Source of the DNA: Eledone cirrhosa
Lineage: Eukaryota
Length of the DNA stretch: 64,000 nucleotides
Assembly: GCA_964016885.1 (NCBI GenBank)
Contig: OZ024742.1
Span: 158,100,001 to 158,164,000, forward strand
Reading direction: 5' to 3'
Each line of letters begins with the position of its first letter. The stretch's first letter is position 1. The position numbers and the translations under genes are program-made. This document shows positions 26,088 through 64,000 of the stretch, one piece after another. The notes under the pieces were generated by a model, which saw nothing but the letters and a program-made list of their open reading frames with translations, was not told where the DNA came from and made no database searches.

Positions 26088-26089
<2 letters not shown>

Positions 26090-26280
26090 CGAAGGAAATG
26101 TAGTAAGGAACCAGGTGGACCATAACGCACCAAAGTACTCAATACTTAGGGTAGTAGAGTGGGTAATAGGAACGAGTAGGACCTCGACAGCTGAGCTCAA
26201 GCCGTTTCGACGGCTAATTCCCAGAATTAGCCGTCGAAACGGGTTGAGCTCAGCCGTCGGGGTCCTACTCGTTCCTATAT
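26088..26280. repeat. PLE-terminus-like repeat with 55-bp fold-back palindrome
   Basis: Arms 26166-26220 / 26224-26278; second family copy at 49710-49845 with inverted piece 50052-50086; contains hammerhead 3' half GAAAC-GG..GAGCTCAGCC-GUC. Confidence 0.85.
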
Positions 26281-26583
26281 ATATATATATAAAAGAGAAA
26301 ACACAGGTAAGTATTAATGCTTACCTGTCTTTTCTCTTTTATACTTTATACTCCAAGATTGAACGGAATTCTTAGAAACTTGTGGAGTTACCCCACACCG
26401 TACGTTGAAACCATCCATGAAACTGGCTTTCTTAACCAAAATCTGGATCACAATAAGCAAGTTTTTGCTTCTCTAACTATATATATATATATATACAAAT
26501 AAAAGGTATAATGATTCCCTAAAAGGCATAATGATTCCCTGTAAGTAACAAGTTAAAAGTATAAATACTGAGCATTATATATT

Positions 26584-34970: not shown

Positions 34971-35065
<95 letters not shown>

Positions 35066-35066
<1 letters not shown>

Positions 35067-35199
35067 TTAAAATAACAGATTAAAGTTTAAGCAAAGAATC
35101 GCTGCTTTCACCCTTAACGGGATCTTCTGAAGTTTCAGAAGATCCCGTTAAGGGTGAAAGCAGCGATTATTTGCTTAAACTTTAATCTCTTATTTTAAT
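35066..35199. repeat. 66-bp-arm fold-back palindrome of a PLE terminal sequence
   Basis: Arms 35066-35131 / 35134-35199 with ~2 mismatches; same sequence as the PLE end at 19936-20005 and 50660-50712; between (TA)n tracts. Confidence 0.9.
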
Positions 35200-35288
35200 A
35201 AACATTTGCTCTACGGTTCTTATATATTTGATATATATTTATCCTTATCGAGCCCTCTTTGGATTTTAGTCTTCAAATTTATTATTAT

Positions 35289-35364
<76 letters not shown>

Positions 35365-35444
35365 CATATATATATACATATATATATACATATAATATAT
35401 ATATATATATTATATATATATATATATTTGTATATATATATATA

Positions 35445-36025
35445 TGGTGGCTGCCAACTCGTTTTCGAATACGGCCACTACTTTATATCCATGTAGGAGA
35501 ACCCATACCGATGCACTGAACGAGTGTGACTTTTTAGTCCAGCCAGCGACTTGAAAACTCTGGTACAAACACTATACTTGTGACAATTATTGACACATAG
35601 TGCTGAGCCCATGGTACCATGTGACGACAAGTGCAGAGAGATCTCTAGATATAAAGCAATACCTGTGCCATGAAGCTTTTATAGTGACAAAGGTACAGCA
35701 CAAAGCCAGTCACACTCTCTTAACCAAGATGATATTTACCAAAAAGAAGAACATACACATATACACGGTGGCTGCCAACTCGTTTTCGAGTACGGCCACT
35801 ACTTTATATCCATGTAGGAGAACACCTACCGGTGCGCTGGACGAGTGTGACTTTTTAGTACAGCCAGCGACTTGAAAACTCTGGTACAAACACTATACTT
35901 GTGACAATTATTGACACATAGTGCTGAGCCCATGGTACCATGTGACGACAAGTGCAGAGAGATCTCCAGATATAAAGCAATGACTGTGCCGTGAAGCTTT
36001 TATAGTGAGCAAAGGCACTGCACAA
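35445..36025. repeat. ~320-bp tandem duplication
   Basis: GGTGGCTGCCAACTCGTTTTCG...GAAGCTTTTATAGTGA starts at 35445 and 35767. Confidence 0.9.
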
Positions 36026-36069
36026 ATATATATATATATACATATATATATACAAAAATATATATACAT

Positions 36070-36148
<79 letters not shown>

Positions 36149-36911
36149 GAGAGAGAGAGGACAACTTAGAGAGATGTAAGCGAAGAAGGGAATACACAAG
36201 TAAGAGAAATAATCTTTACAGAGAGAAGGTAATTGATAGATGGAATATACTGAGCTTGAAATGCCGTTAACTAGTAGTAACGTGGTATGTCTACTATGCA
36301 AGGACACGGGTATGTTTATATGCTATAATTCAATATGTTCTACATAACTATTGCCTCGGGTCTTTTCATCATATACATCAATTTAGCGATGTAATTAGGA
36401 GTTATCGATTCTATTTACTTAGTCTAACTTCGTTGATGGTCCTCTCATAAATGCTGCCTTTTCGTTAGCACATCATCTGATGTTTTTTTATTTGTTTGTT
36501 TTTCGTCTACGGTGTAGTTTTTTTTTTTTTGTTTTGTTTTTTCGCTTCTGTAACGTTATATAGTTCATTAATTTTTTTTTTTTTAGATTATTTTATTATA
36601 TTTCGTAATTCAAACACATTTTCATTTTGGAATGGTTCGGACGGAATGGAATTTTATCATTGCGTTATTTAGTAAAACATTTACCATAGCTAATGGTTAC
36701 AGGATATGCTGAATGTAGTATAGTCAGTGGACCAAAAAACATGCATCACTTTAATAAAACTATCATTGTTATACCTCCCTATTACATTCATATATTTTGT
36801 AACTTTCTTATGATTTGATAGTGCGGATACTCTCTTTTAAGTTGTCTGGTCGTAGGCATGAAGCACCATTGCTATATTTACATATATATAGATAGATAAA
36901 TAGATAGAGAG

Positions 36912-36914
<3 letters not shown>

Positions 36915-36998
<84 letters not shown>

Positions 36999-37015
36999 TG
37001 TGTGTGTGTGTGTGT
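36915..37015. repeat. (TG)n microsatellite
   Basis: Directly visible. Confidence 0.97.
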
Positions 37016-37741
37016 TGGTGTGTTTTCACATCCACCAGTTGCAAGAGCGGCAGAGATGGTCCTGATGACAACCAATTCAGTTCGAAATGCATCAACGATT
37101 GTCCCCCTTGCTTCCGCTGGACACAGCCAGGTGGCGATATCTGCCGGTGTTGTTGCAGAGCTTTCTAAATATAAATTTATAAACATACCGTATTTCTTTA
37201 AAAATACGAAATTCCAATAGATATCTGTATACAGCTATGCTTGAAGCTAAATTCTAATACTATTTAAATCGGTTGCTTGAAAGACCTCCCTGCTATTTCA
37301 TATGTATTGTCCATGTTTTAGTAGTTATTATTTAGTAGTTATTATTTTGCATTCTTCGGCAATTATCTAGATTCAATATGTCCTAGCTGTTATATGCGGA
37401 TATGTTGTTAGATCCAGAAATTAAATGTGTCTTATTAAATCCATGTCATCAGCGAAAATGGTTTTACTGAATTCTCTACCACATGCTTCGAATTACATTT
37501 AAAGAGCTAAAGCCCTTCTGGTATTGCATATTCGCGCAGCACATTGAACCGCATGAGTTAAATAGTTAAAGAAAACGCTGTAGTTTTACATTAATATGGT
37601 GTTTAAAATAAAATCATATATACATATATATATATATATTTTTTTTTTTTTAGTATATGTTCGTTGTATACCAACATCTCAGTATGCAGGCTCGAGCACT
37701 CGACGAAGTGCGCAGGCTGGTATGGTTACTCCGGAATAATG

Positions 37742-37813
37742 TAAAATAAAGTTAAATAAAAAGTCAAATGTTTCAAATTTGAAACATTTGACTTTTTATT
37801 TAACTTTATTTTA
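37742..37813. repeat. perfect 72-bp palindrome
   Basis: TAAAATAAAG...GTTTCAAA|TTTGAAAC...CTTTATTTTA, no spacer. Confidence 0.95.
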
Positions 37814-37869
37814 TATATATATATATCGAAATGAAAATGCGAAGGCAAGGTAAAATTCCATTCATATAA

Positions 37870-37943
37870 TCAGGACACATGTTTCAATAAGAGATAAATC
37901 GATTGTGAAGCCAAGATCGATTATCACCGATCTCATCAGGTGA
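37870..37943 (-). ncRNA. hammerhead ribozyme in PLE 3' terminal repeat
   Basis: UCAC-CUGAUGA-47-nt stem II (GAUAAUCGAU/AUCGAUuUAUC)-GAAAC-AUGU-GUC-CUGA; one stem I mismatch. Confidence 0.7.
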
Positions 37944-39275
37944 AAATGAATTGTCTTCATATTCTTGATATGAGGGAGAAAAAATAACGATGTTCTCTCG
38001 CAGAATTCATTCCCTCATATGGAGACACACCAGTCAGTCAGAGACATGGCGACTGCTATTAGCTTTAGTTGAGGTCATAAAGGTTTTCAGATTTCTATCG
38101 CTGCAAAAGATGCTGGACCTCAATCAAATCTGTAGGGATACAGTCAGTCACAGTTAAACGTGAGTGGGTACACACACACTCCACACCTTCACACATCGAC
38201 TCGAGGTCAAAGAAAAATATATACATATATATACACACATCAACACAGTATTAAACCCGTAGAATTAGCGTGGGTACACACACACTTTCACACACGCCGA
38301 AGCGATGTCCGAGAAAAAACAAATATAAGAATGTACCAACACAGCACTCACCGAAAGTTAGTTCACAAAGCAACAGATGCTATGTCGGTCAAATCTCAAT
38401 TTGACGATGTAAATTGGAAATATTGGGTTAACCAACGCTACACACATACACACACACAAACGCGTGCGCGCAAGTAAGTTCAGTTCAGTGTTCTGCTATA
38501 CGTGTATAGATCGAATTGTAACATCCATATCTTCAAGTGTGTGTTATGGTATATACATATCCGAATCATCCAAAAAATGGGGGGGGGGAGGTATGTCCGG
38601 GTATATACACATCCATGTGAAGAGCAAGCAATTAGCTCATGTCAACCTCCTTGTGCTGTCCTGTTGAGAATCCGTGTCACACAAATCCGTGCGTGCAACG
38701 TGGGCCGACAAAGGGCTCCGTGTAGGGTTGGGTATTGGGTAAATGCGTCCGCAAGTGCGATTTCCCGTCACATGGGCCAATGAACTTTTAAGATAGTTGT
38801 TTGAATGGTGGAGGTGTGTTATCCAACACACAAGGTGAAGTAAGAAAACACAGGACAGTAAAATCTAAAGGATGTGTGTAGGCCCATTAATGGTGTGTCA
38901 GTAATATTGTTCAATCTGTAACAGTGAGTCCTCCATGGTTAGATGATCACGCATCAAAACCTGGTGTAGTGTTCAGTCGGTAGGAACGTGACAGTCGTAA
39001 ATGTGGGAGCTCAATTTCTAAAGGAAACGGGTACTGTGTGTAGAGCTATGTATAGAGAGCGTAATCGGTCTTAACTAAGTGTGTAATCAATCTAACTATT
39101 TACTAGCTAGGTATTCTAAAAGAGAGTACTCAGCTGTGAGAACTCCGTGGACACAGGCCGAGTATCGTTTGCAAGTGCGCAAACAATCTTAGTCGTCTAA
39201 CTACCTTAGTGTGTGACTGTCCGTTTATTGAGAGAACTATATGGCTAAAGTAGAGAAGGAGGAGTTATTGGTAGG

Positions 39276-41350
39276 TTACCTTCCAAAAATCCTGCGGAAG
39301 GTTTTCGAGGTTCTATGTTGACAGTTGCTGAAAAAATCTGCTCTTCTATTAATTAATAGGGGGCCGCCTCTAATAATATTAAAAGTTTCAGCTATACATA
39401 AATTGCAGACGCCAGTGCTGCCGTTATAAGGTTGGGCTGACCAAACTATGAACCAGGATAAGGAGTGCTCTATATTCTGATGTTTAAGCTTCCAGACTAA
39501 TTCCGAAAGTGCTATGCTATTTTTTTTATCTAATCTATTAAAGGTATGGCGGTGATTATACCATCTATCCTTAAATTCCGTGGCAGTTGCCCCAACATAC
39601 CTAAAGGTTCTATCAGGAGTGGAGACCTTACAGTCGTAGACTATGTTTTTGGTAAGGCATTTCCCAGCCATGGGGCAGGTGGCGGTGCTACTGCAGTTAT
39701 ATTTTTTGCTATCGATGTGGGTAGTTCCGGATGGACCACGGTACCTTTGGGTCGGGTCTCAGTTCCAGTCTGCTCTATGGGTAAATTCCCTGGGGTTGGG
39801 AAGACCCGACTCGCTTCACGTGTATGAGTCAGTTCCTCAATAGAGCTGCCATTGTTCCTGCCATCCTAATTCCCTCATTGCCTGTCCTAAGTCAACTATA
39901 ATTCATCTTAGCTATATTTTGAGCTATGTTACTAGTTGTGGAGTAGGACAGCTTGATGGTATTTCTATTGAATATTTCATAAAATCTGTGCGATCTAGGG
40001 AAGCATTTGTCTAAGGCCCTAAAGAAAAGCTTAACTATACTAGTGGTCAGGCCAGTGGAGTAACGGGGATTATACCACAGGACTTTTCTGGTCCGATGCC
40101 TCCTGTTTCTACTAACTATATTAGAATTACCTGTCTCCCTAGTAGTTACTGATCTATTGTAACTGGAAATTACCTGTGGATCGATGGTGTCCTGGGGTGT
40201 CACGATTGTGTTCGGAATCGTCCCAAGTGTTTCAGGGCGGTGTACCCTCCGTGCGGGTATTGGGGTTACCCTCGATAGCTGGGGTTGTATCCGCTATGCG
40301 TCTGCTACATCTGTCCCTATTCCCCCTACTCAACCCTCGTTCCATACTGCGTTCAACGGTAGTTTTATCGGTTCCACAATTAAGGTTACCATTAGAGCTT
40401 CCGCTGGCGTTACGTTGCTCAGACCCAGTGTTAGTACCTGGGTGGCTGTTTCTATTAGTACCAACAGCACTGGGACTAGACGGCAGTACAACATGAAGAC
40501 TATATGAATCCCCCCTCGTATCCCGCCTACTGTTAACTAGAGTTTCACTATTTAGGCCTAAGCTATCGCGGGCAATGTTACTTCTACTATTTAATGGACG
40601 TTTGAATGAGATCCCTCGCTATGCCCTGCGCGTTCCAGGGCGCTATTATAGTAATTCTTGGATGATAGTCCTGAAATTCTACTAGAGACGCTTTTGGTAA
40701 TACCGTTAGTGACTATTCTAGGGTGATTCGATTTGGCGTTGAGATAGTTTAGATTCTCGTTGGGTTTGTAGTAAGGTTGGAAGCGTCCTGAATTGAGGTT
40801 AAGTGTAACATCTAGAAAATTAACTATTTTTAAATTCCCTTCCAAAAACTATACTTAGGTCTATGCTCTTGAAGAATTTGCTAACTTTTTTCCTCACCCT
40901 CTCTACCATACTATTATTATGGAACGACACAGTAAACAAGACGTCGTCACGGTAAGCGCCGCCTCCCAGGTGGGGCATTTCCGCTCCGAGACAGTCAAGG
41001 AGGTAAAGGCCCACCAGATCCGTCACCTGGGCCGAGTCCGTGGATCCCATGGTGATGTTGAAATTGTCTGGCCAATCCCTCCTAGTCCACAGGTCACCGT
41101 TGAATTCAATTAAGGTTTTTCTAGCTAGGAGAATAATGCTAATTCCTTCGGATGTAAGGTCGGTGTGTAAGCTAGCAAAGTTAAGGGGGCCTACCTAGAA
41201 GAGTTGGAGAGATTGAAGAGTAGTAATTAGAGATATCGAACTGTATAAACTTAGTGCTATTCTTATTCTGCGATTTCTCAGACCAGTTAATTACCTCACT
41301 AGTTCCTGACGACAACTTGAGTTTCGATCTCCTAACTCGATTGGAGATTA
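39276..41350 (-). pseudogene. PLE reverse transcriptase + C-terminal GIY-YIG endonuclease, disrupted
   Basis: FIQFDISNYY, FNITMGSTDSAQVTDLVG, YRDD, VNFLDVTLNL, SNHP, IFNRNTIKLSYST, CP.AGKCLTKNIVY..YVGAT..FKDRWYNH, CNLCIAE. Confidence 0.93.
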
Positions 41351-41464
41351 TTTTATCATATTGATCTGGTTCAGATGAAGATAAGTAATTTAGGTAATAT
41401 TATGGAGCGGCTCTTCAGAACTTCTCCACGACACCTAACATAGCTAGCCATATCGCATTCATTT

Positions 41465-41538
41465 TCACCTGATGAGACCAGTGATAATCGATCATGGCTT
41501 CACAATCGATCTATCTCTTATTGAAACATGTGTCGTGA
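41465..41538 (+). ncRNA. hammerhead ribozyme in inverted 5' repeat
   Basis: TCAC-CTGATGA(41469-41475)...GAAAC(41523-41527)-ATGT-GTC-GTGA; perfect 4-bp stem I. Confidence 0.78.
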
Positions 41539-41579
41539 TTAAATGATTGGAATTTTACCTTGCCTTCGGATTTTCATTT

Positions 41580-41740
<161 letters not shown>

Positions 41741-41961
41741 CGGGGTAACAAATTATTGTTATAGGTAGTCTACTTAAGTGTAGTCCAGTTATGGTACTCC
41801 GGGTAGTGGATGATATCAACGCTTGGCTAAGTTTGACTCAACAAGGCGTTTCCATAGTGATGCTGCGAATGCGCTGTAATTCCTATGTTGTAAACCTTTG
41901 GAATAATGATAAATCAGGAAAGAAGAGTGACACGGTTTGCTATACAAAAAAGGTTTTTAAT

Positions 41962-42080
41962 CTCATTGCTGACAATTGTTTCTCTGAACTGGTAGGTCTA
42001 GAGATCGCTACCCGCTTATTTTCACTTTATTCGATCACCAATACAAAGTCATAACCAGTCAATTCATCGGAGCTTGTGAG
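41962..42080 (-). ncRNA. hammerhead motif, U4C core (inverted repeat copy)
   Basis: CUCAcaaGCU-CCGAUGA-..UGACUGGU..ACCAGUUCA..-GAAAC-AAUU-GUC-AGCaaUGAG. Confidence 0.6.
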
Positions 42081-42441
42081 AATGAAAAGAATATACAGGC
42101 ATGGCTACTATATATAGTAGTAATGGCATTCACTCAGAACAATAACAACAATACTAACAATGCTAGCAATAAATTATTTGAAATAATCACAACATCAATC
42201 TAGGTGGGAAGTATAGTATATCTACGATTTTAGCGTGTAAAACTAGCTGACATGAGGCAGATGTATAAAATTGACATGTAAAAGCTGTCGTGGGGTGTAT
42301 TATATCTAGTGTAAAGATAAGCCGGTGTCTTTAACCGATGTAGGTCTGGCGGCGGTAAGAATCGTTTATTATCTGACAGATGAATAATTTATCACTGTAG
42401 TGAGATTTGTGTTTGCCTATATTAGATGAAAGGGTTGTCTA

Positions 42442-44647
42442 AATCCTGCAAAACCCCCCAAACAACCCCACACTCGATGCCTTCGAGCTGGACCTTATGA
42501 ATATGATAAGTGGAACTAAATTCAAAAAAGGAACACATCACAACAAATTACAAAATGACATCAATACACTGCTAAAAAATCTAAAAGTCACTAACGGTAT
42601 CATAGTAAAAGCAGACAAAACATCAAACGTATACTCTATGGACCTTAACACATACAATAATTTTATCCAGCGTGAACCACATAACAAATACAAAAAAAAA
42701 CAAATGAATCCACAGTCACCAGCATTAACGTGGAGGGCCTTAGCATAGTAAATAAACTCGGAATACCTGATAAGACCGAGCCTATAACCCCATGCAACCC
42801 CACATTTAAGCTGAAGGATCACAAAAATAATTTTGGAACAAACCCTACTATTAGATTAATATGCCTATCTATGTCAGATATAGGTAAAATTAGCAAGAAC
42901 ATTCTAGATAGGGTAATCGCACAAATAAAGGGTAAACTAGAAATCAATTTATGGGGTAACATTAACGAGGCGATTGAATGGTTCAATAAAATACGAAATA
43001 GGGAGACATGTAACTTCATACAATTTGATATAAACGACTACTATGCATCCATATCCCCAGCCAACCTAGATAAAGCGCTTATATTTGCCCAAAATAACTC
43101 CGATCTTACCCTTGAGGAAATTGAAATAATAATAGCGGCTAGAAGGACTATCATAAAATTAGAAAATAGCTACTGGGTAAGAAGAGATAGGATAAACAGC
43201 TTCGATATCACAATGGGATCAAATCACTGACATCGTGGGGCTATTCATAGCACACAACCTACATAAGGAATTCAGTAACCTCCAAGGAGGGATTTATAGA
43301 GACGACACGCTCCTTATAGCTAAGAACTTAAACAACCAGAGCATGGAAAGATTAAGAAAAAAGATTAGAACATTCTTCAAAAAACTAGGCCTAAGTATTA
43401 CCTACGAACTGAACCATAAGAAGGTAAACTTTCTAGATGTGACTCTAAATCTAAATACAAAATTAATAGAACATTTCCGCAAAAATAATGAAAATCTGGC
43501 CTACATTAGTTATAATTCAAACCACCCCAAATCCATAATAAGATCCATAGCACGTAGTATATCCCTTAGAATATCCCGCTTATCCTCAAAGCTAGAAATT
43601 GTTAATGAACATGCTAACTATTGTAAAGCAGCATTACATAGGGCTGGATATAAAGATAAACTGCAGTATATAGCGAATAAAGACAACTTAAACAAACCTA
43701 ATAGCAATTACACCAACCGCTCACACAAAAATAGAGGTAACAGGACTAGACATAGGGTTAGGCACGTAGCACCTAGAATAAGCGGTCCAAACACCAATAA
43801 TGTAAACCCAAGAAATAATAGAAGAATCAGAGAAAGAAAATACCTATGGTTGAACCCAATCTTCAACTCCTCTGTAAAAACCAGACTGCCTTCTACATTC
43901 TTTAAACTAATAGATAAACACTTCCATATTTCACACAGATATCATAAAATACTCAATAGAAACACTATAAAACACTCATACTCTACGGCAGCAAATATAG
44001 AATCGCACATACGCAAGATCAACCACAGAAATATCTCTAGGCAATCCGCCCCACCTATGCGCAACATAGCACCAAATTATAAGCACAAACACATCACAGT
44101 ATCACAACCGCAAGCGCATACAAGCACGCAACAGCAAAACTCCAACGGACATGAATCACAACCCACTTATAGCAGTGCACAAAACAGCAGTGTAGAAGCT
44201 GCACGAAATAACACCTCAAACTGTAACTGTCACCTACCGGATAAGTACCCATTGGCGAATAGATGCCTTGATTCGAGCCTAGTGTACATGTGTACGGTCA
44301 ACCCTGACAACTCCACTTGGCATTACATTGGATCCACCGCGGTAACTTTTAAAAAAAGATGGTATGTGCACAGACACTCGATGAAAAATCGTGCACTTAT
44401 GGGTTCTACAACCTTCGCCAAAAAAATCTGGGAACTTAAGAACAACAACACCAACTACAGTATCAACTGGTCGAGGTTGTCGGCCGCAAAGACCTACAGT
44501 ACCGGTATGTCCCACTGTAGGCTATGTGATCTAGAATTAGTGTATATCCTTAGAAATGTAAAAAGGCTACTTAACAACAAGTTAGAAAGATCTATCTTCT
44601 GCAGACACAGGATCGCCTCTAAATTCACAAGATTTAAACCTCCGTGA
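42442..44647 (+). pseudogene. PLE RT + GIY-YIG ORF, 5'-truncated with 2 frameshifts
   Basis: VKADKT, FKLKDHK..IRLI, FIQFDINDYY, ITMGS/QITDIVG (small deletion), IYRDD, VNFLDV, SNHP, NCNC..PLANRCL..LVY..YIGST..FKKRWYVH, CRLCDLE; last 470 codons open. Confidence 0.95.
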
Positions 44648-44804
44648 ATCGAACCTACGTAACCCAGCTTTCAACTTAGGATACTCACTATACTGCACCA
44701 ACCACCTCAGAAATATAATCATTAAGTACATTCTAGCCTTCTTAGTTCTATACCACCCCAATGTCTGTAAGTACCTCATCAACCCATAAGCATATCTCTT
44801 CTCA

Positions 44805-45142
44805 GCTGCTGTCAGCACTTGAACCTAAATCCAAGAACATTTCAAAATACTACTACAACAGAACTTTACCTTCCTCCTGTTATAATTATAGTCAGCAAGT
44901 TTTCTCTTTATATGTATGTATATATGTGTATATATATATATATGTTTATGTGCGTGTATGTATGTATATATTGCTGTCAGCACTTGAACCTAAATCCAAG
45001 AACATTTCAAAATACTACTACAACAGAACTTTACCTTCCCCCTGTTATAATTATAGTCAGCATGTTTTCTCTTTATATGTATGTATATATGTGTATGTAT
45101 ATATATATATATGTTTGTGTGCATGTATGTATATATATATAT
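44805..45142 (+). repeat. ~165-bp tandem duplication in the PLE 3' region
   Basis: TGCTGTCAGCACTTGAACCTAAATCCAAG... at ~44807 and ~44972. Confidence 0.9.
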
Positions 45143-45591
45143 TGCCTCCTTAACCTCTGTATTAACTTGCCCATTATATTACTACTCTGTTAATGTTGTC
45201 TTATACATGTATGTTATTGATGATGAGAAAGCTAGACAACCGTTTCATCTAATATATACCACACAAATCTCACTACAGTGATAAATTCTTCATCTGTCAG
45301 ATAATAAATGATTCTTACGGCCACCAGACTTACATTGTTTAAGACACCGGCTTATCTTTACACTAGATATAATACACCCAATGACAGCTTTTGCATGTCA
45401 ATTTTATACATCTGCCTCATGTCAGCTAGTTTAACACGCTAAAATCGTAGATATACTATACTTCCCACCTAGATTGATGTTGTGATTATTTCAAATAGTT
45501 TATTGCTAGCATTGTTAGTATTGTTGTTATTGTTCTGAGTAAATGCCATTACTACTATATATAGTAGCCATGCCTGTATATTCTTTTCATT

Positions 45592-45710
45592 CTCACAAGC
45601 TCCGATGAATTGACTGGTTATAACTTTGTATTGGTGATCGAATAACGTGAAAATAAGCAGGTAGCGATCTCTAGACCTACCAGTTCAGAGAAACAATTGT
45701 CAACAATGAG
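45592..45710 (+). ncRNA. hammerhead motif, U4C core, 81-nt stem II
   Basis: CCGATGA 45602-45608, GAAAC 45690-45694, AATT loop, GTC 45699-45701. Confidence 0.6.
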
Positions 45711-45756
45711 ATTAAAACCCTTTTTGTATAGCAAACCATGTCATTCTTCTTTCCTG

Positions 45757-45869
<113 letters not shown>

Positions 45870-46109
45870 GAGAGAGTTAAGGAATACGAAGACCAGTGTG
45901 GTCTAGCCTTGGTGGTAGGATATGAAGAAGACGGTCTGATCGAACCTCTATATGTTGTCTGATAGTAAACAGTTATGTAACTGCTATAGATCAGACGATA
46001 TGTCAATATAATCAACCCTCTAAAACGATCGTAAAACAATGATATGAATAGGTAAAATAACTTGACTTTGTTATTTTTATTTTCATTGTTAATTTAATAT
46101 TTTATATAT

Positions 46110-46202
<93 letters not shown>

Positions 46203-46374
46203 ATAATGAGAGGTATACAAATATATGTGTATACATACATATACATGTATATATAAACATATATTTTTCACAAGTATGTGAGATTGTATGTTGTCGACCT
46301 TAACCAGTGTTACTCTATGATTATGAGAGACAAAATAATCGAAATAATTAAATTGACACAATATCAGAGTTATG

Positions 46375-46483
46375 TAAAATATTATAAAAAGGAATAATAG
46401 ATACAGTATACCTATCTTTTTCTTTCATCCCGCGGGGACGAAAGAAAAAAATAGCTATATTGTATCTATTATTCCTTTTTATA

Positions 46484-46491
<8 letters not shown>
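46375..46491. repeat. imperfect ~57-bp-arm palindrome next to (TA)n
   Basis: TAAAATATTATAAAAAGGAATAATAGATACA... / ...TGTATCTATTATTCCTTTTTATAATATTTTA. Confidence 0.88.
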
Positions 46492-46550
<59 letters not shown>

Positions 46551-46683
46551 AATATTAAGGATACTATTTATAGTTATGTATATTTTAAACTATAGACAGG
46601 GAAGGTCAGTAATTTATTACTACCTTATTACCAGTAAGATAAATAGCTCAATGTAAGAACATCAGTTGTTCTACAGAGCAGTT

Positions 46684-47129
46684 ATATAGAATTCACAAGG
46701 ATCAAAGCATTTATTCACTAACAATTGTTTCATCCAAATCTAGGCTTGAGGTCTTCGGAGCATTTTTCAATGCCTGTACATATAATTAACCTCCTATCCA
46801 ACGCAAGAGACATACAGATACATATATATATATATATATTGATGTACAGTGGAGTGACATATATTATAATATACTATATTTTTACAGCATTTCAAATTTA
46901 AAATCAAAATTAAAATACATGCGGCAGATAACACAGATAATGCAAGAGGATAGTTCGATAATCAGATGTAGTAGATAGTGTATGCGTTAGTCATACATGG
47001 TGCATGCAAGTGGATAGGAGGTCAATTATATGCACAAGCATTGAAAAATGGTCCGAAGATTCCAAGTCTAAGTTTGGATGAAACAATTGTAAGTGAATAA
47101 ATGCTTTGAACATAGCTTTGATCCTTGTG

Positions 47130-49611: not shown

Positions 49612-49711
<100 letters not shown>

Positions 49712-50256
49712 CGAAGGAAATGTGGTAAGGAACCAGGTGGACCATAACGCACCAAAGTATTCAATACTTAGGGTAGTAGAGTGGGTAATAGGAACGAGTA
49801 GGACCCCGACGGCTGAGCTCAAGCCGTTTCGACGGCTAATTCTGGACTAAATGAAGATTGTTATCCTGGTATATGAATAGCCGAGCTTCTCAGGGGGTAA
49901 TTCCATATATGGTAAAAGTGATTGTCACAAGGATTGGTCAAAAGTTTGTTGTTGAGACACAATTCTATCATGGCAATTTGTGGGAGGAAGGGGTAGCTGA
50001 ACCTGCCAGTAGAAGAAAGAGGGAGAGGGAGTGGAGGAAATCCAGTCGTGCGTTGAGTTCAGCCGTCGGGGTCCTACTCGTTCCTATATATATAGAGAGA
50101 GAGATTAGAATTAGTGCTCTGAAATAGCAATATATATATATGAATGTATATATATATATAGTGTATTTTGCAATACATTGTATGCTTAATTAAAAGTATT
50201 TCGAAGACCCTACGCTATTGTCACTCACTTCAATTTTTAGCCAACAGGGGAGATAA

Positions 50257-50301
50257 AGCTGACAGAGCTCTGTTTCGTACTTTTTGGTACTTATCAAAGC
50301 T
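50257..50301 (-). ncRNA. compact hammerhead ribozyme, U3-A8 variant
   Basis: AGCU-UUGAUAA-GUAC-CAAAAA-GUAC-GAAAC-AGAGCUCU-GUC-AGCU; all three stems perfectly paired. Confidence 0.82.
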
Positions 50302-50475
50302 AAACTACTCCGCCTGTCTGTTGAAAATCATGAATGTTGGAATCTTATAGAATTCCAGTAATAATCAGGAACTGATTATGTGACATATATATATATAGAT
50401 AGCTAGATAGTGAAATAGAACTTCCGCTGTTTGTAAAGAATGCTAATTTTCAAAATAGCGCCAAGCTCTGAATTT

Positions 50476-50568
<93 letters not shown>

Positions 50569-50929: not shown

Positions 50930-51450
50930 CAACACATAAGCAGGTAATACACACATGTAGGACTGCATACAACACACAAGCACGTAATACGCACATCTAG
51001 GACCACATACAACACACAAGCAAGTAATACATACATCTATGCCCACATACAACACACAAGAAGGTAATACATACATCTAGGACCACATACAACACACAAG
51101 CACGTAAGACATACATCTAGGACGACATACAACCCACAAGCAGGTAATACAAACACCTAGGACTACATATAACACAAAAGCAGGTAATACATACATCTAG
51201 GACCACATACAGCACACAAGTAGGTAATACATACACCTAGGACTACATATAAAAACAAAAGGAGGTAATACATACATCTATGAGCACATACAACACACAA
51301 TCAGGTAATACATACATCTATAAGCACCTACAACACACAAGCAGGTAATACATACATCTAGGACCACATACTACACACAAGCAGGTAATACATACATCTA
51401 GGACCACATACAACACACAAGCATGTAATACATACATCCAGGGCCACACA
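50930..51450. repeat. 40-bp minisatellite, ~13 units
   Basis: Unit GGACCACATACAACACACAAGCAGGTAATACATACATCTA. Confidence 0.95.
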
Positions 51451-51479
51451 CTACAAAAGGCAGGCGAAAGGGGTGGACA

Positions 51480-54471: not shown

Positions 54472-57400
54472 TCAGATATTCAGGACGTATCGGAGGGTTC
54501 TTGCTGTTCCAAGCAAGCATGCCTTTTGAAGCGTTCCAAAAAGCGTGAAAGGGCCGATTTTCATTAACCATCCCTGGAAACTTTTGGAGATAGTCCCCAG
54601 TGCGCCTATGACAATCGGGATCACTTTGACTTCATGGCAGTTCCAAATCCTTTTCACCTCCCACTTTAGGTCCTGGTATCGGTTAATTTTCTCCCTCTCC
54701 TTCTCTTGCACTCTCGTGTCGAAAGGGCAGGCCACATCCACAATCAGACACGATCTTTTTTCTTTGTCCACAACCACCAGGTCAGGTCTATTGTGTTCCA
54801 GTTTTTTGTCCGTCTGTATCCTAAAATCCCACAGCACCTTCACCTGATTGTTCTCCATCACCGCCTCTGGCCTATGCTCATACCATTTCTCAGAATGTGG
54901 TAAATTGTTTACTTTGCACAGGTGCCAGTGGATCACCCTGCCCATCACATCGTGTCTCCAGCCCTTATAGTGGGTCTGGGCTAGGTGTTTACACTCGGAC
55001 ACAATGTGAGCCACAGTCTCCTCTCTCTCTCCACAGATCCTGCACAGTAGGCTAGCCTCCTCCTTGTAAATATGGTGCTTCAACCACTTCGTTTTGAGGG
55101 CCTGCTCCTGCGCAGCCATTAGCATTCCTTCTATAGCCTTTTTGAGGTCTCCTCTTCTCAAACAGTTCCATGTCTGTGGATCTCTAAATTCAGTTTTCTC
55201 AAAGAAGGTACTATGAAGGGATTTTCCCTTAAGGCTGCTCTTCCTCCTTGATGTTATTTCCTCCTTGGACATCCCTTGGCCTACTGTCCCCTCCTTCAGT
55301 ACAGTTCTGAGCATTGGCTCCTTACTATAGGTCACGTATTTGTATAGGTTGTTTTTCTCCATCTGAACACAGTCCTCTATGCTGATAAGACCTCTTCCAC
55401 CCTCAGATCTCCTTAGGTAGAGTCTATCGACATCACTCCTCTTGTGGAACATGTTGTAGATAGTCAATAGCTTCCTAGTCTTCCTATCCATTTCTTTTTG
55501 TTCAGCAACATTCCATCTCAGAATTCCCGCACTGTACCTAATAATAGACACAGCTCGGGAATTTACTGCGCTTATGGCATTTCTGCTGTTCAGATGTGAC
55601 TTCAATACGCTCCTTACTCTCCGAATGTATTCAGTTCTTAACAATTCCTTCATTTTTTTGTTCTTTATGCCATCAGCCTCCAGAACGCCCAAATACTTGT
55701 ATCCTTCCTCAGAGTCAATTTCCTTTATCATCTCACCTGTTGGTATCTGGATCCCGTTACTTCTGCTCAACCTACCCCTCCTCATCACAATGACTCCACA
55801 TTTACTAATACCAAACTGCATACATATATCACTGCTGAAAATACGGACAGTGTCAACAAGCACATCCAACTCCTTCTTACCTTTCCCGAAGAGCTTAAGA
55901 TCGTCCATGAAGAGGAGGTGATTGATGGTAAGCTCTCCCTTTCCCAACTTGTATCCTGCTCTCACTTTTCGCAGCATAATGGTCAAGGGCATCAGGGCAA
56001 GGACAAACAACAGAGGGGACAGGCTATCTCCCTGGAAGATACCTCTATTGATCTTCACACTTCCCAAGGATACTCCAGTTGATGTCAACTCTGTCTCCCA
56101 GGACCCCATACTCCTGCCCAGCAACTGCCTGATGCTATCTGCCACCCTGAAGATCTCCAGGCTTTTGGTGATCCAAGAATGAGGCACTATGTCAAATGCT
56201 TTTCTGTAGTCTATCCATCCCATGGCAAGATCAGTGTGTCTCCTCCTGCAATTCCCCATTACCATCTTATCAATAAGTAACTGGTCCTTTGTACCACGTG
56301 ACTTCTTTCGGCATCCTTTCTGTTCGTCCGGTAACAAGTTGTTTGTGTGGAGGTGATGGTAGATTTCCTAAGACACAATGCTCGTCAACAGTTTCCACAT
56401 TACGGACAGACATGTGATAGGTCTATAGTTGGCAACATCATTACCCTTGATTCGGTCTTTCATTATCAGAACTGTGGTACCTTTTGTCAACCACTCTGGC
56501 ACCTCACCCGACACCAAGCAGTCATTGAACATGGCCGTCAGCTTCGAGTGGAGGGATGTTAAATTGTTAATCCAATACCCGTGCACACCATCTGGGCCTG
56601 GGGATTTCCAGTTGGTTAGTTTTTTGGCCTGCCCCTTAAGAGTTTCAACTGTGATACTCAAATCAGTTTGTTGGTGTGCCTGCTCACCGATCTCCCTCTG
56701 TACTGTTTCAATCCACCCTGCCTGGACATTATGTCTAACATCCTGCTCCCATATTCCTCTCCAGAATGTTTTAGTTTGCTCCGCCCCAGGGATCAAGTCG
56801 TTGCCTCTTTCTTTCCCCTCAAGCTGTCGAAACAGCATCTTCTGGTTGTTGTCGAACATGCGGTTCTGTTTATACTGACTGACTCTGTTCTCGTATCGCC
56901 TGATTTTTGCACTCTTTGCTACAATGCGTTGCCTCAGTTCCTCTATGATAATATTTAGCTTTTTTCTCCTAGTTTTGTACTTTATTTCCTGTCTATTTTT
57001 AGTGCCTATGTTTTTTAGTGTCCCATTCAGTAGTGACTCAAGCTTTCCTATGTCATTTCTCATTTCCCCGATTTGACCACTCAGTCGTTTCTTCCACCAC
57101 GGCTCTGCTCTTTCTTGTCTGTTGTTTCCTCTCGCTTTTATACCAAGTAGTTTCCTCACTGTATTTGCTGTTGCTTTGAGGATATTGTTGCACTGGTGAA
57201 GGCTCCTCGCCTCAAGGTATGGGATGACTTTGTTTACCTTAGCTGTTGTTTCTTTTAACTTTTTCCTGTCTACAAATCTTAGGTTCATAGGTCTCCCACT
57301 ATCATTGTTCAATTCATCTACCACTAAATTTAGGATGTCAACCGAATCTTGTCCTAGCCCGTCAGCATTCATCTCCTCAGTGGCCGTATCTCTGTTCCAG

Positions 57401-58070
57401 GTATTATTTATCTCAGTATTGGGTGGTGGATTGGCAGTATCGGTAGAGGGTCGGACACCATGCTTTGACGCATAGAGTTACGGCCCTTGCCATTCTGAGT
57501 TCAAATCCCGCCGAGGCTAACTTTGCCCTTTCATCCTTACGGGGTCGATAAAATAAAGTACCAGTAATGTACTGGGTAATTGCTGGCCTTGTGCCAAAAG
57601 TAGAAACAATTATTTATCTCAGTATTCAGATCATTGTCTGCTTCGGGTGGCTCCTCCGTTCTCAGGACCTCTTCACCTTCATTTCCCACTGGCTCGCTTG
57701 TCTGGCATACTACACCCGCCATCTCCAAGCCATTCTCTCTGCTCAGTTCCTCCAGTTCCAGCTCGCTTATCCACCCACTAGTTCTTATTACCCGAGCCTG
57801 CCCGGCCAATTTTTGTTCATCTAATTTAAATAGACCAATCTTGTTCCAGATGTTATGCATCCGTCTCCTGTAGCCCCTCTCCTTGGGGTTACTTTTCAGG
57901 TAACATTGCATAACAGTTCTATTCAATTCTTTCGTCCAGATGGTTCTGGCCCCTTTCCTTCTTCTTCTTCCTCCAACATCAGCAGTATTTGGTTGACAGT
58001 CAGGTTCCTGCTGCTGAGCCAGGGGGCACCTGTTGGGTGAGAGTCTGTCACATGATGTTCTAGTCTCCAT
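54472..58070 (-). pseudogene. R4/Dong ORF interrupted by a SINE and one TAG
   Basis: [49 protein letters not shown]; [33 protein letters not shown]. ORFs 57537-58070, 56368-57372 and 54472-56337 join in frame once the SINE is removed and the TAG read through. Confidence 0.93.
57421..57609 (+). mobile_element. SINE inserted antisense into the R4/Dong ORF
   Basis: 17-bp TSD TTATTTATCTCAGTATT (57404-57420 / 57610-57626). Confidence 0.95.
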
Positions 58071-59144
58071 TTCACCGTTATTCGAACTGTTTATGTTCGA
58101 TATTTAAACACTCTTCTCGAGGATTGGCGAATGTATGGTTACATAGCCATCTGTGGATTCGCCGTTCCACTTGGCCCTTGTGTGGCATTATCACCACGCT
58201 GTATACGAACACACATAAACAAACAAACACACAGGCAGAAAGGGCCCCAAAAATGAATCAGCATAAGTTTCATTGTAATGTAGTGTTCGAATGTCTGACT
58301 TAGTTTTTGTTTTTTTAGTTTTATTTTTTTCCCCCTCTTCTCTGTCCGTCCGCCTGCTTCTCTCTTCATTCTTATTTTCTTTACGTTTTTTGTTTTTTTT
58401 TTGTTGTTGTTTTTCTCTGTTTGTTTTTCTCGTTTTTTGCTGTTGTTGCTGTGCTGCTTTGGTTTTGTTGTTTGTTTTTTCTTTCTTTTTTCTCTTGAGT
58501 CTATCTATATATTTTGATGCCTTCCTCTTTTTTAGTAGTAGGAATTCTATAATGTGGTGGCAGCAGCCATCTGAAGGAGTGGAGAATGGCGGCGGTAGCG
58601 ATACTGAGACAGTGGTGGTGGTGATGTCGATACCGGGGCAGTGGTGGTGGTGATGTGGTCGTATTACCGTATTGATGGTGTTGTAGCGGTGGTAGCAGTG
58701 AAGGAGTGAAGGGGTGGTGGCAGCCGTGATGGGATAGTGGTGGTAATGATGGCAGTAGTGAGCGGTGGTGGTGAAATTGCCGTTATCTGGCTGTTGTGTT
58801 TAGTGTACACAGGTGATGAGGTGGGTGGTGTATCTAGTTTCTGGTGTTGGTGAGTTTGGCTGTTCTATATAGTGTAGACAGAGGAGAGGAGGGGGGGGGG
58901 GTTCTTCACCATTTATAGCCATTTTCTTTTTTGGATATACAGTGTACAATACAAAGTTGAATATTTGAATATTTGAGCCTTATAACAATATATTTTGGGT
59001 CCGAATTTGTTGGGGCTCAAGCCGGTTGCTTTACGCAGCATTTGTACTGAGAGTTGTTATTTCACAAATGATTTAAATATGTTAAAAATTCAAAACTTAC
59101 GGGAGCGATTTCATGACCTCCGCCACCTCGTGCGTCTTCTTCCC

Positions 59145-59190
<46 letters not shown>

Positions 59191-59558
59191 GGCGACCTAC
59201 GTAGTAAATCGTATCATCATGAGCTCTGCAAAGGTTTGTTATTTTCAGTTGTTTAAAATTGCCATTTATGGAAAATTTATATTGTTAACTGTTTATAAGT
59301 GCACATACATTGATTTCGGAAACGGACACTCAAAAATATTGGGGCCTTGAGCCCAAAATTTAAACTTTTTATAATTATCAAACAAAAGTTTTTCTTTGAA
59401 AAATCACGGCTGACTCAGAGTCACTCCTTCCTCACAATCTAACACCTCAAACCGACACCACCATTGTAAATATTGCTACGTTTGCCAACACTGGAAATGT
59501 AAGCAGTAGCAATATTTTAAATCCATCTCAGGCAGCCGTTCATTTCCCGCCATTACCA

Positions 59559-61343
59559 ATGACTGCAGGTGTTAAAGCCGCCACCACCACCACCACCGCG
59601 ACTACCCCCCCCCCCCCCCCCCCCCCCACCACCATCACCACCACCACCACCACCACGACAGCGACAACAGAGACAAAAGAAAAAGATAAATTAACTTGTG
59701 ATATCGAATTGAATTCAACCAAAATGAACTCTTCCACACCGAACACCACTGACGCCACCACCACCACAACTGAAACTATAATTAACAATAACAAAAATAA
59801 CGATAACAACAACAGCAACAATGAAATTAAGAAAACGACCCTGAGTTTTGCCAGAGTAGCAAAAACGTGCGAAGCGATCCTAGTAACTCAGGAGGTATTA
59901 GAAGAAGCCAAAGGAATGGTAAAGAAAGATGGGTACAGGGTCAGCCTCGCCCCCCCCCCCCCCCCACCTAATATATGGAGCAACGTCGCCTATGCACCGT
60001 GTCGTGTCTTATCGGACAATTAACATAAAATTGCGCCGAGTCCCAAATCCAAAAAGCTTTGGGACATGTGTGGGCAAAAAAAACCCACATCAGACGTGGG
60101 CAGAAGTATGGAACCGTGGACGTGTTCTTTGAAACACCACAGGAGGCCAGAGAACACTCCATGGCCCCATTAAGAAGTGACGCCTTCACACTCGTCCCAA
60201 GCTATTGTGGCCAGAGACTTGTGAAGATCAGGGTGAACCACGTTACTCCGGCCATCGACATTCCCTGGCTAATGGCTGCCGTCCTCGCCGGCATCGAGGC
60301 CAACACCAAGATAATTGAAATAGCGAAAGAAAAGCAGGAGAACTGGTCCGGATCTGGGATGGGGCTCCTGATCCAAGCGGACCATAAAAGCATTGAGGAC
60401 ATCCCAGAGGTAACAGACCTCAATGACAGCAGCCACCTCACCGTAATCGTTGAGGACAGAAGACCTAGGCTAAAAGGTTGAGGCCACCTCTCTTACCCAT
60501 CCCAGTGACTCAACCATCAACACCACCAGCAGCAGAAATGGCAGCAACAACTGTAGCAGCAACAACAGAAGCAACTGTAACAGCAACAAACCCAGCAACA
60601 GTAGCAAACCGTCACCACCACCACCACAACCCAACACGCCAGAACTAGCACCAGTGCCTACACCATCAACCACGCCACAACCAAAACCAACGCCTGTGGA
60701 GGATTTACCACTCCCCGGCTTAGCGCAGCTGGAGACAGATTGTGACGACGTGCAGTGGGAAACGGTATCAGGAAAAAATAAAAAAAGAAACCAAAAAAGA
60801 AAAAATTCTCTTCCTTCCCCCTCCAAAATCAAAATACAGAGGGAACCGAATAAATTATCAAAGAAAAAAGTTAGGACAGATATGCCAGCATCCACACCAG
60901 CATCACCAACCCCATCACCACAAACACCAACACCAACACCATCATTAACCCCAACACCACCATCACCAACACCACAAAAGTCACCAAAAAGCGTAACAGA
61001 AACAAACCCACAACAAACGCAAACAAAACAAAACAACCAAAACGATACACACTACACAGAATTAAATTTGAACAACAACCAAGTATTACACTACATGCAA
61101 CACAACACCAGCATCACAGAAAAAGACTACACAACAACCCAAAAGTTCACACCACCTCCACACATACAAATCAGTCGCATCACACAGAAAACGCACACGA
61201 CACTAAAACAAAAATTTCCCAAAGACATCGGAGACTTCCGACAAACACTCTCCAGGAGGATTTATAAGGACATCCTTCCGGAGGAGGCCACGAGCAGTGA
61301 AATGGATGGACAAATCATCCTTCCTCTACGAGAAGTAAGGTAA
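59559..61343 (+). pseudogene. LINE ORF1 (Thr/Pro-rich, frameshifted)
   Basis: Fragments 59559-60023, 60059-60481 and 60654-61343; SFARV motif, RRM-like core, decayed knuckle (RRPR..G*GH), W.TV..K.KKR motif; directly upstream of ORF2. Confidence 0.65.
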
Positions 61344-61377
61344 GTGGTCTTTCACATCTTTAACACTCCATTTCAAC

Positions 61378-64000
61378 ATGACCTCACCCAGAATAGGCAG
61401 CATAAATGCGCGTGGCTTGGGGTGGTCATGGAAGCAGGGCCACCTGCTCAACGACCTCAGGTCACTAAACATAGATGTAGTGGCCATCAGCGAGACCAGA
61501 ATCTCGGAAGCACGAGCCTTCGCACCGATCTTCGGCGGCTACGATGTGTACGCATCTCCCAGCCGTCCGGGATCGGGGGGAGGAGTTGCTGCGCTTTTTC
61601 GGGGGAGGTTTGGATCTCGCCATACGGGCCATCTTCCTGGACCCAGAAGGTAAGTTAGTGGTGATAGACGTGACCAGCGGAGACGGGCAAGCTTTCAGGC
61701 TAGTAGCCGTCTATGCCCCGACTGGAGCAGGGCGGCCTGATTTCTTCCGGCGTCTGGAGACCTTTCTTGGAACGTCCCGCTCTTTAGTGTTAGTGGGCGA
61801 CTGGAACGGGATATTAGATGCACGCTGGGACTGGGTGGGATTAGCGGATAGGGGAGGAGGGTGAAAGAGCCTCACCAACCTGCTCAGGCGTTTTGAACTG
61901 TCTGACAGGTACCGATTGGATTTCCCGAATGTGCCAATGTGGACTTGGACAAATCGCATAGGGTCATCCAGATCATATCTAGATAGAGTATTTTGTAGAG
62001 AAATAGATAGGTCTAGCATAGGCTGTCAACAATTCAAGATAGTCAGCTACACGGACCACAAATTCGTGATCTGTGTGCTTGACTTAGATAGGCTTCATAG
62101 ACGAGGACCCGGCTACTGGAAGCTACACGAGTCCTTACCACGCAAGGCCTACAGAGACCGGATTAGCGAACTAGTTAAGCGTGCGTTGCGGGGGCCATCG
62201 TCAACAACAAGTGGTGGTTTGCTCTGAGAAGAGCAATTAGAATAGAGTCCATTAGGTTTAGTAAGGCTTTAGCAATAGAGAAAAATAGAGCAGAGGGAGA
62301 ATTAGTTAGAAAATAAGACGAGGCGCTTAGCAAAGGCATCGCGACCGACGTACTTGCGGCGAAATTGGCCCTTGACCAATTCTTCAATGCAAAGCACGAA
62401 GGCTGCGTTGTCAGAGCTAGGGTGCGTGCTCTCAGACACGAGGGGACGAAAGCCGTTCAATGGGCCCGAGTGGCGGAGGCGCGTCGTGGCAACAAAGCCA
62501 CGATCCGGTCTTTGGTGGACCACGATGGGCGCATGCTACTCGTTCCCGGGCAAATGTGTGAAGCTTTTCAGCGACACTTCGCTCAGTTGTTCGGGGAGAG
62601 TGGCGGGCCGGATCGAGGGATGGACTTTAGTGTCTACCTCGACGGACTGCCGCGGCTCTCGGCCACTGAGGCGGAGTGTTGCGAAAAGCCGATAACAGCC
62701 GCTGAAGTACGGGAGGCAATGACTAGCCGCACAAGTGGTAAATGGCCTGGTTTGGATGGTCTGCCCTATCAACTTTACGTACAGATGCCAGACTTGTGCG
62801 GAGGCCTCTTGCCGGACGTCTACTGCAACTGGCAACAGAACGGGAGAATTCACAGCTCTGTGAGCCGAGGAGCTGTGTCGCTGCTGAGAAAGGATCCGAA
62901 CAAGGGGGATAACATAGATAATTTTAGGCCCATAACTTTGCTAGACACAGAGTTCAAGATTTTGGCCAAGGTGCTAGCAAAGAGGTTGGCGCTTGTCGTT
63001 GGTGGTCTGGTGGGAGAGGCGCAGACATGCGCCATTCCCGACAGATCCATCCACTACAACATCCACCTCATGCGATACATCGTAGAGCTGGTAGCTAGGG
63101 AACCTGGCACGGGTGGGTCCTTCATCAATTTAGATCAGTCGAAAGCTATCGATAGGGTCGACCACGTTACCTAGCGGCAGTCCTGAGGGCGGCTGGCTTT
63201 GGGCTCGTCTTCAGAGGCTGGATCGCTGCCATGCACAGCGACATCTGCTCTGTGGTGAGAGTGAAAGGTCACCTTTCGGAACCGTTCAACATCATGCGCT
63301 CGGTCCGCCAAGGATGTACCCTCTCGTCCCTCTTGTACGTAATGACTCTCGAGCCATTACTGCACAAACTGGAGACGTTGAGGGGGGATAAGCGCGAACT
63401 AGGATGCGGAAGATCCGTGTCAGCAGATGCGGACGATGTCACCGTAGTGGTGTCGAACGCCAAACACATCGAGGCGATCGGCACTACACTAAAAGAATAC
63501 GAAGCGGTGACAGGAGCAATGATCAACCAGGAAAAGTCAGTGGGCCTGCAGCTCGGCACCTGGAGACGCAGGTCCATGCCGTCCAACAGCGTCGTCGGGC
63601 GCTGGACGGACGGACCAGTTACATTGCCCGGAGTCTGGTTTGGTGCGGATCTCCAGACGGACAAAAACTGGGACGAGGTGACGAGCAGGGTGGCTTCTCT
63701 CACCCAGAAATGGGCGGTGAGGAAGCTATCCCTGAAAGGTCGAGCGGAGGTGGCTAACGCGTACATCGCGTCCGTCATCTACTACCGCCTGACCGTCGTA
63801 CCTTGTCCTAAGACCCGCCTTCTCCTAAGCCCCGCCTGCGGTGGAGCGTTTGCTCTTTCGCTTCTTGTGGAAGGGACGCGCTCCGATGGTCAGGCGATCT
63901 ATCTGGTGTCAACACCCGCTACGTGGAGGGCTGGGCATGCCGTGGCTGATGATGCGTAGACACGCGCTCAGGCTACATCTCCACCTTTTCCTCGACGGTG
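61378..64000 (+). pseudogene. LINE ORF2: APE endonuclease + RT, several frameshifts and stops
   Basis: IGSINARGL, VAISET, VYAP, VGDWN, YLDRVF, TDH; GKWPGLDGLP, NFRPITLL, LDQSKAIDRVDH, VRQGCTLS.LLY, ADDV, LSLKGR. Confidence 0.93.

Follow-up and report, generated by a model that had tools for sequence, protein, structure and literature searches.

A motif of 45 letters in this locus has the layout of a hammerhead ribozyme, with U3-A8 in place of the C3-G8 pair of the core. The question it raises is whether this is a working ribozyme, what kind of element carries it, and whether it acts alone or as a pair of copies. In this work the window, that is the whole 64,000-nucleotide stretch analysed, was searched, folded and compared with sibling copies in sequencing runs. 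The reading that we prefer, to which we assign a probability of about 0.62, is that of a type I U3-A8 hammerhead within a solitary and worn copy of a high-copy repeat, likely a retrozyme or the end of a Penelope-like element, which likely cuts after C17 and is predicted to do so mainly as a dimer.

Anatomy and detection of the motif

The full 45 letters are carried by the minus strand, read from 50301 to 50257, and are the reverse complement of window positions 50257-50301 (Table 1). The core follows the type I definition N3-UGA-N-N8-A / GAAA / UH with a Watson-Crick pair between positions 3 and 8, here U3-A8, GAAA and GUC, and the three-helix layout is present with helix I open and a G10.1-C11.1 pair. 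As for the elements of the loop I-loop II contact, loop II equals the consensus of the Rfam family Hammerhead_HH9, and the six-position helix I before the core is preceded by UAGU in this copy versus UAC in the common siblings. By sequence and structure definition the motif is a full-size type I hammerhead. Assignment to the minimal hammerheads (min-HHR) was rejected, given the 4-bp helix II, the 4-bp helix III and the lack of a base between A9 and 10.1.

A strict descriptor, which allowed C3-G8 or U3-A8 in the core and asked for three stems of at least 4 bp each, matched once in the window and in none of 300 dinucleotide-shuffled windows (both strands); a looser one gave two matches, the second being a weak one at 3096 on the minus strand. 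No family reached its gathering score in an Rfam scan of the whole window, the hammerhead families (CL00010) included. Over 50170-50380 (211 bases) the best match was Hammerhead_HH9, with 21.6 bits versus a gathering threshold of 52 (E=0.003); the motif agrees with its consensus in loop II and in spacing. Folding of the minus strand of 50220-50340 gave z = -3.17; a function of the plus strand, with z = -0.69, was rejected.

The preliminary description had called this a perfect 45-nt hammerhead with a recognised compensatory U3-A8 pair. Its letters are exact, the type I assignment with the U3-A8 core agrees with the sequence anatomy and with the descriptor and shuffle counts, and natural covariation to U3-A8 is on record (PMC3088659). 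It left the minus strand unstated, however, the predicted fold of the monomer differs from a hammerhead, and the motif is larger, at about 50228-50335. That such a motif is missed by pattern searches is right for the Rfam gathering threshold and for C3-G8 descriptors, but a U3-A8 descriptor was published in 2014 (PMC4209133).

Table 1. Positions of the hammerhead, of its parts and of the repeat copy that carries it
Feature	Position	Strand	Detail or basis
Solitary copy of very high-copy repeat, ~220 bp	50162..50380	-	depth table, loose ends
Interrupted (TA)n run at RNA 3' end of copy	50132..50159	.	sequence
(TA)n run at RNA 5' end of copy	50385..50398	.	sequence
Extended stem I: internal loop beside proximal helix, then long complementary arms	50228..50335	-	folding
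Type I hammerhead core region	50257..50301	-	sequence, descriptor and shuffle test, Rfam HH9 below gathering
Stem I 5' strand	50301-50298	-	AGCU, pairs with AGCU
Core U3 U4 G5 A6 U7 A8 A9	50297-50291	-	sequence
U3 and A8, replacing C3 and G8	50297 and 50292	-	sequence
Stem II, 4 bp, closed by G10.1-C11.1	50290-50287 with 50280-50277	-	sequence
Loop II CAAAAA	50286-50281	-	sequence
G12 A13 A14	50276-50274	-	sequence
Stem III, 4 bp, with AGCU loop (12-nt palindrome)	50273-50262	-	sequence; predicted dimer interface
C17, predicted cut on its 3' side	50261	-	sequence
Stem I 3' strand, 4 bp with 5' strand	50260-50257	-	sequence

The repeat, its siblings and its surroundings

Self-comparison found no second copy of the repeat in the window. 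Siblings were sought by comparing four of nine listed runs (X1, X2, X4 and X7) with 50162-50478 at 80% likeness. X1 and X2 are one sample and contain only a quarter of the words of the stretch; judged by these words, their source may be a relative rather than the window's own genome. The statements below on sibling differences cover 40 of 89 difference rows, and reads too unlike this copy were clipped, which biases the comparison towards A8. Summed contig depth in X1/X2, which is not copy number, ranged from 20,000 to 100,000 at the ribozyme and reached 210,000-570,000 in the flank bins of greatest depth, the flanks being 2-6 times deeper than the ribozyme; single low-copy contigs lay at 5-25. 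The repeat was found under two organism labels and in three studies, and it is present in very many copies.

Among the rows seen, neither the core nor stem III is changed, and the differences cluster in loop II and in the loop of stem I. All six T>C places tallied in X1 and all six in X2 are accounted for, and none is 50292; with an aligned depth of about 35,000-40,000 at nearby 50289 in both runs, G8 comes to less than 3%, a value inferred from the X1/X2 tallies, with one A>G place in each run and further T>C places of X4/X7 lying outside the rows seen. Position 3 is not directly covered by the rows seen. One X4 contig, under another organism label, is identical to 50259-50303. In stem II, a change of U-A to C-G at 50289/50278 occurs in 303 of 1163 and 312 of 1195 X7 reads (59 starts each), at 9-10% of depth at both partners in X1 and X2 and at equal depth in X4, in a table that does not phase the two. 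This change breaks the stem II palindrome and keeps the pairing, and a change of A to G at 50301 in the 5' strand of stem I (80 of 378 X7 reads) likewise breaks its palindrome with a G-U pair kept. An importance of the stem I and stem II palindromes was rejected, as siblings break both and keep the pairing. A diverged sister form with canonical CUGAUGA was seen in loose ends at 50315 (six contigs in X1), and a loose end at 50324 in one X4 contig has its C3 start. Because A8 is common to nearly all aligned siblings in X1 and X2 and the stem II change is matched, U3-A8 is, on the sequences compared, a trait of the family rather than a result of decay in the window copy, and the family coexists with a canonical relative.

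The window copy itself is worn. At arm positions 50238, 50242, 50318 and 50321 it differs from nearly all aligned siblings, and the energy of its arms is -27.6 kcal/mol versus -43.1 with the sibling letters, which pair almost fully. About 19 extra bases at 50220 in some other copies are absent from it. It ends at 50379-50380; siblings continue past 50379, on the RNA 5' side, in 48 contigs of X1 and 55 of X2, and this continuation, of which about 30 bases are known, was sought in the window and is absent. Its roughly 175 flanking bases contain about nine near-private substitutions (at least 80% of X1 depth differs). A flank drift of about 5% leaves a 45-mer untouched about once in ten cases (hand arithmetic), and for this reason the intact core is no sign of selection on the window copy.

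These comparisons bear on what had been proposed for the motif beforehand. A check of siblings for U3-A8 had been suggested, with decay from canonical CUGAUGA as the alternative: the siblings are not all canonical, the tallies of X1 and X2 leave little room for G8, and decay is contradicted. Of the proposed "selected for activity", selection holds at the level of the family and not for the window copy with its drifted flanks, and activity stays a prediction; of the palindromes said to suit dimers only that of stem III is relevant to the pairing of two copies.

Three further features of the siblings were observed. In X7, a RAD run, molecules stop matching at 50232 (206 of 293) and at 50354 (160 of 246) and enter mixed sequence (agreement 0.36-0.37); these breaks are perhaps those of a hairpin module of about 120 bp found in many contexts, or of a few deep loci. 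The hexamer GTGAGT just 3' of the hairpin, at 50222-50227 on the minus strand, reads GTAAGT in loose ends of siblings; it is similar to a 5' splice site and may be chance; introns are known in Penelope end repeats. Inside stem I, 247 X7 reads break off at 50299 and enter what we take to be a Tc1/mariner-like terminal repeat, which would point to an insertion of another transposon into that sibling.

The window is repeat-rich, microsatellite-rich, animal-type DNA with remnants that, from their motifs, presumably belong to several transposon classes. We take three of them to be Penelope-like, with a reverse transcriptase followed by a GIY-YIG-type end (42685-44647 on the plus strand, 39276-41194 and 20906-21322 on the minus strand). 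The longest, 42685-44647, has 13 homologues, one of seven scanned giving a Pfam GIY-YIG match; a Pfam scan of six ORF pieces of the window named none usefully. It is flanked by a 533-bp inverted repeat, 95% identical and without a hammerhead (41909-42441 / 45233-45762), and an inverted truncated copy of this kind has been described for Penelope-like insertions. The other two are broken, and Pfam gave no match for them. None of the three shares sequence with the repeat at 50162-50380 in self-comparison, no hammerhead was found near them (Rfam over 38000-47000; descriptors), none is linked to the window copy, and the copy does not stand at the end of an ORF for reverse transcriptase and GIY-YIG endonuclease. 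Elsewhere in the window, an element with inverted ends of about 35-58 bp occurs twice (49711-50094 and 26089-26285, 97% identical), also in (TA)n, and broken ORFs at 27854-30333 on the minus strand look to us like a Helitron Rep/PIF1 helicase. Two stretches, 54472-58103 (minus) and 59400-63959 (plus), are presumably non-LTR retrotransposon remnants, one apparently with long reverse transcriptase frames and a C-terminal zinc-knuckle/endonuclease-like end and the other with the order endonuclease-reverse transcriptase. A SINE-like repeat of about 190 bp at 721-908 recurs at about eight other places and, as a guess, resembles octopus SINEs; a tandem array of units of about 40 bp lies at 50930-51464.

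Predicted folding, mechanism and competing explanations

Folding and cofolding were done with the nearest-neighbour model of ViennaRNA, which omits the loop I-loop II contact and core stacking. In the predicted monomer, the first seven bases (the stem I 5' strand with U3-U4-G5) pair with the stem III palindrome and the core is hidden. All U3-A8 spans and flank versions that were folded have this misfold as their minimum; the hammerhead fold lies above it by 5.4 kcal/mol for 45 nt and by 3.2 for longer spans, and by 2.9-5.1 kcal/mol in all six U3-A8 flank versions. Replacing loop III in silico by a non-palindromic one removes the misfold. With 68 or 108 nt per copy the unconstrained dimer is predicted as a double hammerhead, at ensemble shares of 0.96-0.97 for stem III in trans and 0.84-0.94 for stem I in trans; with the 45-mer lacking flanks it is not. 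In silico C3-G8 tightens the misfold by 2.7 kcal/mol and lowers the trans shares to 0.24-0.72. The energy gain of the dimer, -10.1 kcal/mol, is equalled by 63 of 300 shuffles and hence is not unusual. The hammerhead is thus predicted to be off as a monomer and on as a dimer of two copies. A misfold of about 3 kcal/mol could be outweighed by the omitted tertiary contacts and core stacking, and a dimer could form only by exchange of the long arms, which fold in cis and would hinder that strand exchange.

Searches beyond the window yielded a second family. The pattern specific to this repeat had no match in viral contigs and none in metagenome contigs. A general U3-A8 pattern matched 123 loci from 39 of the 64 parts of the metagenome collection; only six pair all three free stem II positions and one passes all stems, and most of the 123 are chance matches. 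Seven (L015, L029, L048, L070, L079, L088 and L118) come from a single assembly, and all except L118 were aligned with the window. They are full-size U3-A8 type I motifs with a CAAAAA loop, several of them decayed, and the six aligned loci have a short palindromic stem III, starting A-C-A-G in four, and mostly UAY before a six-base helix I. By flank similarity there are at least two subfamilies, L015 and L088 have direct repeats near the motif, and outside the motif the loci are unrelated to the window repeat. In the alignment 94% of the pairs counted are paired and the covariation score was reached by one of 500 shuffles, where U3, A8, G10.1 and C11.1 are fixed by the pattern and four of the six loci were first noticed by their paired stem II. 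A tblastn search of the 123 loci for similarity to Penelope-like proteins found none. As this second family lies in an unrelated assembly, full-size U3-A8 hammerheads are not unique to this genome.

From its sequence, the hammerhead likely cleaves the RNA of the element after C17. In the mechanism that we propose, a single copy would pair the start of its core with the stem III palindrome, hiding the core, and two copies would pair via the 12-nt palindrome and swap stem I partners to form a double hammerhead. By analogy with elements of this kind in the literature, unit-length RNA would be released when tandem or multimeric transcripts are cleaved, a host ligase would circularise it, and a Penelope-like reverse transcriptase/GIY-YIG endonuclease would reinsert copies, often 5'-truncated, into (TA)n. 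That cycle most likely left the window copy as an inert product. Its non-coding unit of about 220 bp (longer in other copies) and very high depth has the features of a retrozyme-type unit (about 150-450 bp, <50% GC); one copy lies in the window, and no head-to-tail joint was found among sibling contigs of 224 nt or less. The siblings that run past 50379 and the (TA)n on both sides are Penelope-like features, not exclusive to that family. Solo monomers and 5'-truncated Penelope ends are common, according to bioRxiv 2026.07.22.740005, and (TA)n is a preferred target of Penelope-like elements (PMC8557442). Retrozyme units of 170-400 nt are highly self-paired, one of them with a 20-nt indel, and retrozymes include circles and the dimers of axolotl (PMC7229834). 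Metazoan type I hammerheads called canonical in PMC4209133 have a 6-position helix I, a 4-bp helix II and a palindromic loop III, and are modelled as dimers. The 4-bp stem III of the present motif is, by comparison, longer than in most dimer-dependent hammerheads; eight of nine predicted retrozyme dimers did not cleave in the tests described in bioRxiv 2026.07.22.740005.

A further idea, which we hold tentatively and regard as doubtful, is that of a built-in switch, off in the monomer and on in the dimer, in which the core start is sequestered by the palindromic stem III and U3-A8 became fixed because it loosened this hold by the modelled 2.7 kcal/mol. The folding of the second family lends weak support to such loosening: in silico C3-G8 stabilised the monomer minimum in four of the six loci, destabilised it in one and left one unchanged. 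If true, the switch would explain why U3-A8 recurs in hammerheads whose stem III starts A-C-A-G, as in the second family, and would let circular retrozyme RNA escape its own cleavage; what keeps the ribozyme inactive in such circles is a question that PMC7229834 leaves open.

The same kind of element may instead cleave as a monomer, with tertiary contacts between the stem I loop and CAAAAA, stabilised by the long arms, overcoming the misfold and the palindromes incidental, which we consider unlikely, if a real contender. It is favoured by a stem III of 4 bp with a tetraloop and by arms that, given the sibling letters, close stem I in cis at -43 kcal/mol, and it fits reports of cleavage by retrozyme monomers, with rates of about 0.8 per minute in coral and 0.1 in mussel (PMC7229834), and of strong rate increases through tertiary contacts (PMC6155905). 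It is opposed by the misfold being the minimum in all the versions folded and by the 12-nt palindrome, which is unchanged in the 40 rows seen. That the ribozyme is no longer needed, U3-A8 going back to one founder in which it weakened the ribozyme or left it unused and the repeat having spread as a SINE-like passenger, seems to us rather improbable. The canonical sister form and the flanks that outnumber the ribozyme in depth speak for it, as do Naiad elements, which spread without hammerheads (PMC8557442), and the many predicted retrozymes that are inactive in vitro (bioRxiv 2026.07.22.740005); against it stand the matched stem II change within the family, variation that falls mainly in the two loops among the rows seen, reports that cores of U3-A8 type are active in vitro (PMC3088659) and the second, unrelated full-size U3-A8 family.

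That the host has recruited the window copy for regulation, in the manner of the intronic amniote hammerheads, is very improbable: in its favour, the rows seen contain no change private to the 45-nt part of this copy, and its loop II is the HH9 consensus, but drift alone would leave such a stretch untouched about as often as calculated above, both the arms and the loop of stem I show drift, and the nearby ORFs inspected look like transposon remnants. A chance look-alike, or a canonical hammerhead decayed after insertion, would explain an Rfam score far below gathering; against the empty shuffles, the A8 common to the family and the identical 45-base stretch under another organism label, we give it next to no credence, and it was rejected on the shuffle test and the sibling comparison.

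A very abundant animal repeat with a full-size U3-A8 type I hammerhead thus escapes both the Rfam gathering threshold and descriptors limited to C3-G8, and because a family of this kind is missed by both, retrozyme-type elements are probably undercounted. Why the 3-8 pair should be swapped at all is a question for which the U3-A8 family and its canonical sister form make a natural comparison. The predicted lock, if real, bears on how the circles of metazoan retrozymes avoid self-cleavage. The surprise is nevertheless small, since the core variant and the dimer principle were already known.

Comparison with known systems

A literature search found no report of this repeat family; supplementary lists may contain the family or the combination. 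Closest to it are the canonical metazoan type I hammerheads of non-LTR retrozymes (Cervera and de la Pena 2020, PMC7229834; Li et al., bioRxiv 10.64898/2026.07.22.740005), which share the 4-bp helix II with its 6-nt loop, the looped helix I and the palindromic loop III, in a unit of a few hundred bases that pairs strongly with itself, occurs in very many copies, solo ones included, and has variants that differ by an indel of about 20 nt. The present motif, known from sequence, differs from these in its U3-A8 core and its longer stem III (4 bp; 12 bp as a dimer). Metazoan retrozyme RNAs are moreover mostly predicted with the hammerhead free (PMC7229834), whereas self-blocking is predicted for the window repeat.

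Cercyon Penelope-like elements of Schistosoma mansoni (PMC4209133; Cervera and de la Pena 2014), with about 1,300 matches, share U3-A8, a high copy number, mostly single dispersed motifs and a dimer model. In their minimal motifs helix II is long, A9 is followed by an extra base and helix III is all but absent; the window motif, in contrast, is of canonical size, lacks the extra base, has a full stem III and is linked to no Penelope ORF here. A long palindromic stem III is described in the same paper for a Saccoglossus motif. Among natural variants, Perreault et al. (2011; PMC3088659) described C3-G8 covarying to U3-A8, active in vitro by earlier work, and a palindromic stem III that gives a 10-bp dimer helix in Aedes; the passages of that paper describe no full-size motif combining U3-A8 with a palindromic stem III and no monomer misfold of the core start.

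Rfam Hammerhead_HH9 (RF02275) shares loop II CAAAAA, the 4-bp stem II with G10.1-C11.1 and the GUC triplet. We take this family to be the intronic amniote motifs of PMC6155905. It differs in its C3-G8 pair, in scoring the present motif below gathering, and in being a low-copy conserved intronic motif of amniotes (PMC6155905). The U3-A8 core and the palindromic stem III are each already published (PMC3088659, PMC4209133); what this repeat adds to them, as predictions from folding, is the misfold of the monomer, the double hammerhead of the dimer and the tightening of the misfold by C3-G8.
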